A DNA stretch of 30,190 nt, taken from assembly GCA_037140135.1 (NCBI GenBank), contig JBAXFC010000001.1:1-30190 (forward strand), given 5' to 3'. A model generated the notes under the pieces. It saw only the letters and a program-made list of their open reading frames with translations, did no database searches and had not been told where the DNA came from. The DNA comes from Chloroflexota bacterium (GTDB lineage: Bacteria > Chloroflexota > Limnocylindria > Limnocylindrales > CSP1-4). Positions 1 to 2,566 of the stretch are shown here, in pieces (the first letter of the stretch is position 1; every line of letters starts with the position of its first letter). The position numbers were made by a program, and so were the translations under genes.

Positions 1-1849
1 GGCTGGGCGCACGGCGCTTGGGCGCGGCCTCGGGGGCCGGAGCCTCGGCTGCTGCCGGAGCTGCCTTGGGTGCCGCGGCCCTGGGGGCCTCGGCCGGGCG
101 GCCCCGCTGCATCTGGGCCCGGAGGAGCTGCTCGAGCTCCGGCGGGACCTCGCTCCACTCCTCGCCGCCCGTGGGCCGCGGGGCGCGATCGGCGAACCGG
201 TCCTGGCGATCGCTCCGCGGCCGGCCGACGGGCGGCTGGCTGGGGCGTCCGCCCTGGCCACCACGTCCGCCCTGGCCGCCCTGGCCGCCCTGGGGACCCT
301 GGGGACCCTGGGGACCACGCTGCGGATCGGCGAACCGGCTCGGGGTTGTGCCCCTGCCGCCGCCATAGCGCTCGCGCTCGATCGCGGCAGCGTACGCACC
401 GGCACGCCCGCCGCGGTTGCCACCCTGGCCGCCGCGATTGCCACCCTGGCCTCCGCGATTGCCGCCCTGGGCTCGCCGGCGCTCCGCCAGCAGGTACTCC
501 GGAACCTCAGGCTCCTCGAGATCCTCGTCGTCGAGGGGCGCGAGGTCGCCGGCCGGCCGTGCGGCCGGCGTCCCGATCTGGCGATCCCAGACGGACCCGA
601 AGGACGGGGACCGCGGGGGACGCGGCGCGCTCAGCGCCTCGAGATCGTCGAACGGCGTCGGAAGCTCGCCCGACGGCGTTCGCGGCGCGGGCCGGCTGGC
701 GCTGCTCCGGCCACCACGCGCGGGCCGGGCCTCGGCCACAGGGGCCTCGTCCTCGACCTCGCCCTCGGCGGCCTCGGCGTCGGCATCCTCTTCATCGGCA
801 TCGGCGGCTGCACCGGCAGCGGCCGCGCCCTCGGCGGCAACGGCACCCTCGGTGCCCTCGCCGTCAACGCCCTGGTCATCGCGCCGACCGCGACCACGAC
901 CACGACCACCACGGCGGCGGCGGCGGCGGCGGCCCTCGCTGTCAACACCCTCGCCCTCGGCGCCTTCGGCACCTTCGGCACCCTCGGCGCCCTCGGCGTC
1001 AAGCGCCTCCTCGACAGCCTCGTCGAGATCCTCGTCCTCGGCGACGGGTCGTGCGACCGGTCGTGCGACGGCGGCGCGGGACAGCTTCTCGCCCGGCAGG
1101 GCGATCAGCACGCCACCACCTGCGGAAGCGGCAGCGGCCACCTCCTCGCGATCGTCCCGGTATACGCGATCGTCGCGCTCGACGAGCTCGGAGCGCTCGC
1201 CCCGGCCGCGACCACGACCACGCGACGACGCGGCAACCTCGTCCCGACGGTCCCCGCGACCGCGGCCACGGCCACGGCCACGGCCGGTGCCCTCGGACTG
1301 CTTGTCCGGGACCTCGGTCATCGAGAGATCCTCGTCGTCGTCCGAGACGCGGCGTCCGGAGCGGGTGGAGCTCTTGTCCACCTTGGCGATCTGGGTGATG
1401 TCCGTGAACAGGTCCGCGACCTCGATCAGGTCCGACGAGGTGTTGCCGCGGAAGCTGATGACCTCGACGCGGACGCCCATCTCCTGCACGGCACGGATGG
1501 CAGGCGCGAAGTCCCCGTCGCCCGACACGACCACGGCCACGTCCAGGTTGCGGGCGGTCTTCATCATGTCCACGACCAGCTCGATGTCGAGGTTGGCCTT
1601 GACCTTGCCGTCGCCGTACTTGCGGATGTCCTTGCTGACCACCTTGTACTGGTGGCGGGCGAGGAACTGGTGGAAGTTGCGCTGGTTCTCGTTGTCGGGA
1701 TCAAGGCCCGTGTACGCGTACGCACGGACGAAATCCCGTCCGGCGGTTGCCGACTTCAGCAGCGTGACGTAGTCGATATCCACGCCGGCCGCCTTGGCCG
1801 CGTAGAAGATGTTCGCCACGTCAACGAAGACGGCGACGTTCTTCCCCAC
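1..1849 (-). CDS. NYN (LabA/DUF88, PIN-like) domain protein with long low-complexity RG/acidic C-terminal tail; 3' end runs off the window
   Basis: Manual translation from GTG at 1849 (SD GGAG just upstream): MGKNVAVFVDVANIFYAAKAAG...KANLDIELVVD...VSGDGDFAPAI...VEVISF...ADLF, which are NYN acidic motifs. The frame stays open to position 2, so it has no stop in the window and is absent from the ORF track. Confidence 0.92.
   Translation of the reverse strand, partial: MGKNVAVFVDVANIFYAAKAAGVDIDYVTLLKSATAGRDFVRAYAYTGLDPDNENQRNFHQFLARHQYKVVSKDIRKYGDGKVKANLDIELVVDMMKTARNLDVAVVVSGDGDFAPAIRAVQEMGVRVEVISFRGNTSSDLIEVADLFTDITQIAKVDKSSTRSGRRVSDDDEDLSMTEVPDKQSEGTGRGRGRGRGRGDRRDEVAASSRGRGRGRGERSELVERDDRVYRDDREEVAAAASAGGGVLIALPGEKLSRAAVARPVARPVAEDEDLDEAVEEALDAEGAEGAEGAEGAEGEGVDSEGRRRRRRRGGRGRGRGRRDDQGVDGEGTEGAVAAEGAAAAGAAADADEEDADAEAAEGEVEDEAPVAEARPARGGRSSASRPAPRTPSGELPTPFDDLEALSAPRPPRSPSFGSVWDRQIGTPAARPAGDLAPLDDEDLEEPEVPEYLLAERRRAQGGNRGGQGGNRGGQGGNRGGRAGAYAAAIERERYGGGRGTTPSRFADPQRGPQGPQGPQGGQGGQGGRGGQGGRPSQPPVGRPRSDRQDRFADRAPRPTGGEEWSEVPPELEQLLRAQMQRGRPAEAPRAAAPKAAPAAAEAPAPEAAPKRRAPS
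288..316 (-). repeat. In-frame 9-nt tandem repeat x3 encoding GPQ
   Basis: ccctgggga x3. Confidence 0.85.
410..472 (-). repeat. In-frame 21-nt tandem repeat x3 encoding GGNRGGQ-type units in the NYN tail
   Basis: ccaccctggccgccgcgattg-like unit repeated three times on the + strand. Confidence 0.85.
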
Positions 1850-1872
1850 GTTGACTCCTATATGGTGCGGCG

Positions 1873-1902: not shown

Positions 1903-2358
1903 CTAGCGGCGGGCTGTGCCCGACGCAGGAAGGGTCCGCCGGAGCACGGGGCCGGCGGTGCCGAACCCGGCGCGCTCGAAGCGGGCCAGGGCGGCTGAGT
2001 CCGAGGGCTGCTCCGCCTCGACCGACGAGCAACCCTTGTTGCCCGCTGAGCGGAGGAGCTCCTCGATGAGCAGTTCCGTCACGCGATCTGCATCGTGATC
2101 CGGGGCGACGACCAGGAAGTCGATGGTCCCGACATAGCCGCCGGCCGTGACCGACGGACGCAGGACAAGCAGCGCCCCGCCCACGATCTCCCGTTGCACT
2201 TCGGCGACGAGGAGGCTCGCGTTCGGCAAGTAGGTGAGCTGACGGAGCAGGTCCGCAGCATCGAGCGGTCCGTGCACGACTCTCGAGAACACCGACCGGC
2301 CGATCGTGACCAGGCGGTCGATGTCCGTGATGCGAGCCGGGCGGATCTGGTGCTCCAC
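1903..2358 (-). CDS. GNAT-fold N-acetyltransferase-like protein (degenerate acetyl-CoA loop)
   Basis: GTG start, VEHQIRPARITDID; LLVAEVQREIVGGALL and GTIDFLVVAPD strands; C-terminal ARFERAGF, typical GNAT layout. Confidence 0.8.
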   Translation of the reverse strand: MEHQIRPARITDIDRLVTIGRSVFSRVVHGPLDAADLLRQLTYLPNASLLVAEVQREIVGGALLVLRPSVTAGGYVGTIDFLVVAPDHDADRVTELLIEELLRSAGNKGCSSVEAEQPSDSAALARFERAGFGTAGPVLRRTLPASGTARR

Positions 2359-2538
2359 GCCGTGGTCACGACCTCGTGCAGCGTTCGACCGTACGCAGGG
2401 TCCCCGACCGCTTGCCGGTTCGGAAGGACGGCCCCACGCCAGGCCGAGAGTTGACGACGTCCCCGGAGGCGAGCGAACGAGGCTCGAACAGCCATCCCGG
2501 GACGAAAACGGCAAAGGGGACGGATGCAAACGGCAACC

Positions 2539-2566
2539 TTGCATCCCCTCCGCGAGCGACTAATAT
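2539..2566 (+). promoter_or_regulatory. Putative sigma70 promoter of the liv operon, overlapped by an inverted repeat
   Basis: TTGCAT-N16-TAATAT in an AT-rich patch; GGATGCAA-N9-TTGCATCC (2522-2546) overlaps the -35. Confidence 0.45.

Follow-up and report, generated by a model that had tools for sequence, protein, structure and literature searches.

A LabA-like NYN protein of the Limnocylindria with a long, motif-bearing disordered tail: a candidate RNA-decay scaffold

The stretch of DNA analysed here, referred to as the window, comprises positions 1 to 30,190 of contig JBAXFC010000001.1 from the Chloroflexota genome assembly GCA_037140135.1. It opens with a partial gene on the minus strand (P0001, 2..1849, 616 codons, 3′ end cut at the contig edge) that encodes a LabA-like NYN domain followed by a disordered tail, in which short conserved islands are separated by divergent spacers. 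Comparison with relatives supports the description of the product as a NYN nuclease that is conserved and has, in the manner of RNase E, a disordered tail bearing short motifs. We hypothesize that it may serve as a hub of a degradosome or of a condensate. That the protein is a core, vertically inherited, single-copy and scaffold-bearing endoribonuclease of the Limnocylindria is, in our judgement, an even bet. The NYN domain and the scaffold layout are each already known; new here is the joining of a NYN nuclease to a degradosome-style disordered tail. A full-text literature search yielded no paper describing this architecture or the RNase biology of Limnocylindria. The genomes sampled numbered 301 across the Chloroflexota, including 32 from the class of the window (public name Limnocylindria), which fall into the three families f1 to f3.

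NYN nuclease domain

The NYN domain (residues 4-151; 1397..1840, minus strand) affiliates to the LabA-like family PF01936 with an E-value of 1.5e-35 and a score of 123.2 bits (cut-off 24.2), and it spans positions 1-144 of the 145 in the profile. AlphaFold2, run on an alignment of 68 rows, predicts residues 1-155 as a folded unit of alternating strands and helices (pLDDT about 80). The AlphaFold2 model and the Foldseek comparison agree on a PIN-like three-layer fold without a helical insert after strand 2. The structural neighbours found by Foldseek were 2QIP (TM 0.79) and the mouse and human MARF1 NYN domains (TM 0.77), and a phmmer comparison with 2QIP gave an E-value of 5e-17 at 31% identity. 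The protein in 2QIP (VPA0982 from Vibrio parahaemolyticus) is a LabA-like NYN protein of the same domain family with the same D..N, D, D and SGDGD positions. In contrast to the Limnocylindria protein, in which the domain is followed by some 500 residues of conserved disordered tail, it is a stand-alone domain of about 160 aa. The common bacterial NYN fusions contain folded OST-HTH domains (PMC5499597), and such domains were not among the Pfam matches of the Limnocylindria protein.

Residues D10, N13, D50, D88, S109 and D111 are invariant in the 68 rows, which represent all three families, and so are D94 and D113. D10 and N13 are found where strand 1 ends, D50 at the end of strand 2, D88 at the start of the long helix, and S109 and D111 at the end of strand 4. 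Judged by strand-end position and spacing in the predicted model, the six residues are the likely counterparts of MARF1 D178, N181, D215, D246, S270 and D272. In MARF1, D178, D215, D246 and D272 are each needed for the Mg- or Mn-dependent cleavage of single-stranded RNA, and N181 and S270 are conserved too (PMC6217404). The NYN active site of the Limnocylindria protein thus looks intact on sequence grounds. An intact core had been claimed in an earlier note made from the sequence of this window, and both the Pfam match and the invariant active-site positions bear the claim out. Across 84 relatives that remained after removal of sequences more than 85% identical, the domain has a mean pairwise identity of 0.93.

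The likeness to MARF1 (5YAA, 6FDL) extends beyond the fold and the equivalent catalytic residues. MARF1 works in P-body condensates together with decay factors, and its cleavage activity also depends on an appended RNA-binding module (PMC6217404). Nevertheless, MARF1 is a eukaryotic protein with 16-17% identity to the Limnocylindria domain, and its RNA-binding module is a folded LOTUS/RRM unit, not a disordered Arg-rich tail.

A NYN fold could also serve only as an interaction platform in a regulator that binds rather than cuts, perhaps like cyanobacterial LabA. RNA cutting has been shown for no bacterial NYN protein of the LabA type (PMC5499597), which agrees with such a role; the acidic, Asn and Ser residues equivalent to the catalytic ones of MARF1, however, do not vary among 68 sequences that span three families, which would be unexpected of a dead enzyme. 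We therefore regard a non-catalytic regulator as very improbable.

Disordered tail and conserved islands

The tail covers residues 160-616 of the translation, i.e. at least 457 aa, and reaches about 500 residues in full-length members of the family. It contains 69 Arg, 4 Lys, 75 Gly, 73 Ala, 86 Asp plus Glu and 10 aromatic residues, with 21 RG and six RGG motifs. Its charged fraction is 0.35 at a net charge per residue of -0.03, the basic and acidic blocks alternate, and the charge segregation lies 6.5 standard deviations above that of 500 shuffles. The tail is thus a charge-patterned, multivalent disordered region of the type found in bacterial ribonucleoprotein bodies (BR-bodies). Disorder over more than 450 residues, as proposed in the earlier note, is also what AlphaFold2 predicts: 375 residues have a pLDDT below 50, and the sole secondary structure predicted in the tail consists of short helices at residues 452-461, 484-494 and 570-582, the last being the most confident. 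A reading of these helices as membrane anchors was rejected, given their negative mean hydrophobicity and low hydrophobic moment. Tandem repeats in the DNA coincide with repeats in the peptide.

Conservation along the tail was computed on the same 84 relatives. Seven islands, I0 to I6, have mean pairwise identities of 0.69-0.87, against 0.23 in the rest of the tail, a layout of short conserved microdomains among divergent spacers as expected of a scaffold. Three of them (I3, I4 and I6) had been picked by the earlier note, whereas I0, I1, I2 and I5 were defined from the conservation alignment. Because the former three were chosen from one sequence before any comparison was made, their identities of 0.69-0.72 against 0.23 in the flanks provide a check on island conservation that is free of circularity.

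All islands are given on the minus strand. I0 (residues 150-199; 1253..1402; identity 0.84) is a conserved linker (SGRRV..DDEDLSMTEVPDKQ) that leads into a (GR)n block. Its core M-x-E-V/M-P-x-K is kept class-wide (MPEMPAKEV in family f3), and S176, P181 and K183 are invariant. I1 (residues 247-258; 1076..1111; identity 0.76) reads VLIALPGEKLSR, with P252, G253, E254 and L256 conserved in at least 90% of the sequences. I2 (residues 304-323; 881..940; identity 0.87) is an oligo-Arg/RG block of the form R7-GG-RGRGRGRR, in which R308-R313, G314, G315, R316, G317, R318 and R320 are invariant throughout the class (68 rows including families f2 and f3). The DNA of I2 contains a (CGG)7 repeat at 912-933. 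In a codon comparison with a relative from another genus (L011), the differences were 12 synonymous and two nonsynonymous in I2, and 17 synonymous and five nonsynonymous in I0. The synonymous excess in both islands therefore points to selection on the peptide and not on a DNA repeat.

I3 (residues 408-427; 569..628; identity 0.69) reads APRPPRSPSFGSVWDRQIGT, and its residues F417, G418, W421, Q424 and G426 are conserved in at least 90% of the sequences. It includes the hydrophobic stretch FGSVWDRQIG (residues 417-426; 572-601). I4 (residues 438-461; 467..538; identity 0.72) consists of an acidic run followed by EVPEYLLAERRR, with a predicted helix at 452-461, and includes the stretch EPEVPEYLLAERRR (residues 445-458; 476-517). 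I5 (residues 484-500; 350..400; identity 0.69) reads GAYAAAIERERYGGGRG and has a predicted helix at 484-494. I6 (residues 563-585; 95..163; identity 0.69) reads EEWSEVPPELEQLLRAQMQRGRP, contains the predicted helix 570-582 in a block with a pLDDT of 85, and begins with EEWSEVPPELEQLLRAQM (residues 563-580; 110-163). For the three stretches it had named, the coordinates in the earlier note are correct. The strings that it quoted from the NYN core (FVDVAN, NLDIELVVD, SGDGDF and ADLF) and from elsewhere in the protein (GRGRGRGRGR, ADADEEDADAE, RRRRRRRGGRGRGRGRR, AEGAEGAEGAEG and three GGNRGGQ units) all occur in the 616-aa translation. Its description of the gene was accurate in these respects; it has to be amended in two, as the gene is incomplete and the conserved islands number more than the three named.

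In family f3, the linker motif, the Arg block and basic C-terminal repeats are retained, but I3-I6 give way to a different set of conserved islands (EIGWxELxDLSQ, REYxFEEADAATLAELGL and, at the C-terminus, GIWxRFRS). The layout of islands within a divergent tail therefore predates most of the individual islands. When island profiles were run against all six-frame open reading frames of the genome, only the NYN gene was recovered; the next matches had E-values of 0.04-1.6 and were apparently unrelated. Likewise, a search with tail residues 405-590 against 5.8 billion clusters matched this NYN family alone. Three of the matches were shorter, lacked a Pfam domain and are probably fragments. The database proteins P0149 (389 aa) and P0123 (578 aa) match the tail islands but have no NYN domain; both probably represent pieces of this gene or gene calls with a frameshift.

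Island I4 allows for a role at the site of cell division. As a mimic of the FtsZ C-terminal peptide it would dock on FtsA and in this way either bring the nuclease to the membrane or divisome or compete with FtsZ. The I4 sequence (consensus EIPEYLIAEQRR; EIPEYL...RR) contains the core [DE]-[IV]-P-x-[FY]-L with basic residues behind it; within I4 the core takes the form E-[IV]-P-x-Y-L. In the consensus DEPEIPEYLIAEQRR the core [DE]-I-P-x-[FY]-L is shared with the FtsZ tail of the lineage, DDLEIPSFLRRR. Our rough estimate from composition, which is not the result of a tool, puts the chance occurrence of the core in such a tail at about 5e-4. Moreover, FtsA is present, and a search of five genomes detected no SepF, for which reason SepF was not considered as a receptor. 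On the other hand, the motif lies inside the chain (residues 448-458 of more than 616) and not at the C-terminus, it is absent in family f3, and the pattern was defined after it had been seen. A co-fold of the genome's own FtsA (L056:1483-2706) with tail residues 430-470 scored 0.00 and is evidence for neither side. We consider a tether to the divisome quite improbable. Two further observations concern these division proteins: in relatives (L052, L053), a conserved RDFLxELE motif occurs in the long linker of FtsZ, which ends in the tail DDLEIPSFLRR, and the genome's own FtsA (L056:1483-2709) ends in an amphipathic GFLGRIRSGFRSIF helix.

In overall layout the protein resembles the RNase E scaffold of the Escherichia coli degradosome and the Caulobacter BR-bodies. 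Both combine a catalytic domain with a long, disordered, charge-patterned region that carries Arg-rich segments (RNA-binding in RNase E, putatively so here) and short conserved microdomains among poorly conserved spacers. The catalytic domains, however, are unrelated, and the Limnocylindria tail has no hydrophobic membrane-targeting helix. The protein has no match to PF10150; it hence does not belong to the RNase E/G family and is an analogue in layout only. A match to the NCBIfam model of mycobacterial RNase E was rejected as a sign of homology, since it scored 19.6 bits where the cut-off is 1400, and lay in low-complexity sequence. A parallel also exists for I2. The C4 nonapeptide RRRRRRSSA of cyanobacterial RNase E suffices to bind PNPase, and its SSA residues matter in Anabaena (PMC3964918). 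Like this nonapeptide, I2 is a very conserved run of six to seven Arg within the disordered non-catalytic region of an endoribonuclease (here a predicted one), but the Limnocylindria run is followed by GGRGRGRGRR and not by SSA.

Distribution, gene order and RNA-decay background

The gene is present in a single copy with a long open frame in all 32 class genomes (15/15, 2/2 and 15/15 in the three families sampled), including genomes of 1.0-1.4 Mb. Among the candidates scored, more than 2300 database proteins matched at E ≤ 0.001, and those with a name belong to Candidatus Limnocylindria or Limnocylindrales. The tail is consequently not private to one genome, a possibility that the earlier note had treated as fatal to its proposal. 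An assignment to anti-phage defence (PADLOC PDLC01154) was discarded: only the NYN half matches (positions 149-298 of 310), and the class-wide single-copy core status and the fixed housekeeping synteny also speak against it.

Translation of the gene starts at a GTG codon (1849-1847), 5 nt downstream of a GGAG ribosome-binding site read from the sequence (1855..1858, minus strand), and the frame remains open to base 2 without a stop codon. Since base 1 of the window is also the first base of its contig, the gene is truncated at the 3′ end and the product comprises at least 616 aa. The break falls in the first APKRR repeat, where the basic repeats of the C-terminus begin (APKRRAPS...; 2..25, minus strand). 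In homologues, the unit A-P-K-R-R-T-T-R-K occurs mostly in three to four copies and in up to six, with Ala/Pro/Glu spacers between them; these proteins begin with MGKNVAVFVD and measure 636-742 aa (median 659 aa). The source assembly is 85% complete and consists of 681 contigs, and neither the missing 3′ end of the gene nor the expected downstream holB was found elsewhere in it. The tandem basic repeats probably broke the assembly at window positions 1-25. A scan of positions 1-2800 for promoters and terminators gave no terminator and one promoter-like site within the coding sequence, a result that is uninformative for Chloroflexota.

Upstream of the NYN gene lies a gene for a GNAT acetyltransferase (PF00583, E 6.8e-8; 1903..2544, minus strand). 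The coordinates are those of the longest open reading frame, and the true start is probably further in. Its stop codon is located 53 nt before the NYN start. In f1 the gene order is livK (on the opposite strand), GNAT, NYN and holB, the gene for the delta' subunit of DNA polymerase III. The order in f3 is similar, except that a YtxH-like gene on the opposite strand stands between NYN and holB (L025:7620-8339; likewise in L031 and L034). In f2, holB follows directly after NYN, and a GNAT match was not found. NYN proteins with disordered regions from outside the class do not have holB as a neighbour. We read the GNAT-NYN-holB linkage as an inherited gene order rather than as proof of a joint function. 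With respect to the acetyltransferase neighbour, we observed that the NYN tail is nearly free of Lys except in the C-terminal repeats.

The proximity to holB in all three families nonetheless brings up a nuclease of the nucleoid or the replication machinery, in which the PIN-like NYN domain would act on flaps or primers and histone H1-like repeats would bind DNA. The C-terminal PKRR repeats (KPAAK in f2) do resemble histone H1-like DNA-binding tails, and FEN and T4 RNase H are among the nucleases with a PIN-like fold (PMC6217404). However, the YtxH-like gene on the opposite strand in f3 splits NYN from holB and hence argues against an obligate operon, the adjacency is absent outside the class, and the characterized enzymes nearest in fold cleave RNA (PMC6217404). 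A DNA nuclease is accordingly improbable in our view.

Regarding RNA decay, RNase E/G (PF10150) was found in none of 16 genomes (this one and 15 relatives, eight of them of high quality), and among the 301 Chloroflexota genomes only one had a match above the Pfam cut-off. RNase Y was present in 16 and RNase J in 15 of the 16 genomes, in both cases including the one analysed here, which also encodes PNPase. The organism therefore possesses a conventional Bacillus-type decay machinery. The earlier note had proposed an RNA-decay scaffold independent of RNase E. The proposal stands as far as RNase E/G was not found, but in a trivial sense: with RNase Y, RNase J and PNPase present, the NYN protein is not the sole candidate for a hub.

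A NYN-group nuclease in a host with RNase Y and RNase J has a precedent in Bacillus, where Rae1 (YacP, PF05991) is a ribosome-dependent endoribonuclease acting on mRNA. The Limnocylindria protein differs from it by its Pfam family, the GYN motif being absent, and by its tail, as Rae1 has no long tail. By analogy, the NYN domain could trim precursors of stable RNA or cut mRNA on the ribosome, and the Arg-rich tail would bind rRNA like the extension of a ribosomal protein. Such a role in the maturation of rRNA or tRNA, or on the ribosome, would agree with the high conservation of the domain within the family (0.93 pairwise identity) and with the retention of the gene in 1-Mb genomes, as core genes linked to translation would be retained. 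The invariance of the oligo-Arg block is what the reading of a single fixed structure would produce, and bacterial NYN genes have been tied by their neighbourhood to tRNA and rRNA processing (PMC5499597). Yet genes for rRNA, tRNA or ribosomal proteins were adjacent in none of the loci examined, the domain is PF01936 and not the YacP family PF05991, and a tail of 300-500 residues with island turnover between families is unlike a factor for a fixed ribosomal site. We consider this alternative unlikely, although it deserves more weight than the other alternatives discussed.

Proposed function and related layouts in the Chloroflexota

In the function that we propose, the metal-dependent LabA-type NYN domain would perform the cutting, presumably of RNA, and the C-terminal polyampholyte tail would act as a module for substrate capture and assembly. 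The invariant oligo-Arg/RG block, together with the remaining RG/RGG tracts and the PKRR repeats, would bind RNA and perhaps acidic protein surfaces too. The acidic blocks would offset the basic ones and create a multivalent, charge-patterned chain that may favour self-association with RNA; a polyampholyte with many Arg stickers would be the type of chain that condenses with RNA. Islands I0, I1 and I3-I6 may act as linear motifs for docking, either to partner proteins or to the NYN domain of the protein itself; the helical ones among them are of a kind typical of docking. As in MARF1, the exposed NYN active site may need an RNA-binding appendage, which the Arg-rich blocks and the basic repeats could supply. 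In a phylum nearly devoid of RNase E/G, the protein would thus be a soluble scaffold-bearing endonuclease beside RNase Y and RNase J.

Several points weigh against this proposal. The genome already has RNase Y, which is known as a hub in Firmicutes and may be one here, so that a second hub is not needed. Nuclease activity has been demonstrated for no bacterial protein of the LabA type (NYN.COG1432) (PMC5499597). The single co-fold, that of FtsA with I4, pointed to no partner, and any partner set would not be fixed across the class, as the islands of f3 differ from I3-I6. The conserved adjacency to holB could point to DNA rather than RNA, and for basic repeats of the Arg-rich and H1-like types DNA is as good a ligand as RNA. 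Finally, metatranscriptome contigs from ice, soil and river (three studies) align to the NYN-coding part at 85-99% likeness and lend weak support to transcription of the relatives' genes, but contigs from RNA libraries cannot exclude DNA carry-over and are silent on expression levels.

A related layout occurs elsewhere in the Chloroflexota, where PF01936 is located at the C-terminus behind a low-complexity N-terminal region of 500-800 aa (L036, L039, L040, L057-L076). These N-terminal frames are not due to chance, since they are also found in genomes of 46-57% GC. In 16 of the 25 proteins examined, an oligo-Arg run precedes the NYN domain by 150-190 residues. It has mostly the form S-R7-S, which the Limnocylindria protein does not have, and resembles the PNPase-binding nonapeptide. 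In a maximum-likelihood tree of 57 NYN domains, the Limnocylindria sequences all fall to one side of a single branch (support 87/90; recovered in 93% of the bootstrap trees) and are ordered by family. With midpoint rooting and moderate support, the N-terminally disordered proteins were positioned elsewhere in this tree, among short stand-alone forms. Because of these separate positions, the C-terminal and the N-terminal layouts look like separate elaborations of one theme. A more far-reaching scenario would be that the Chloroflexota, nearly without RNase E/G, built soluble NYN decay scaffolds at least twice, once with a C-terminal tail and once with an N-terminal region. The conserved oligo-Arg block would dock RNA and/or PNPase, and the proteins would nucleate BR-body-like condensates, in convergence with the RNase E degradosome and the NYN-containing P-bodies of eukaryotes. 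We put this forward as a speculation that is, as a whole, unlikely to hold.

RNase E, and in part RNase Y, are the known cases of a scaffold-bearing endoribonuclease that organizes RNA decay. If the proposed function is correct, the Limnocylindria protein would add a third, unrelated catalytic domain, and the motif-studded disordered tail would be a solution reached more than once and not a peculiarity of RNase E. The parallel with NYN nucleases of eukaryotic P-bodies adds comparative interest. The protein would also provide the first functional context for bacterial NYN proteins of the LabA type, and its seven short motifs would offer a tractable handle on the RNA-decay partners of an abundant uncultured lineage of freshwater and soil.

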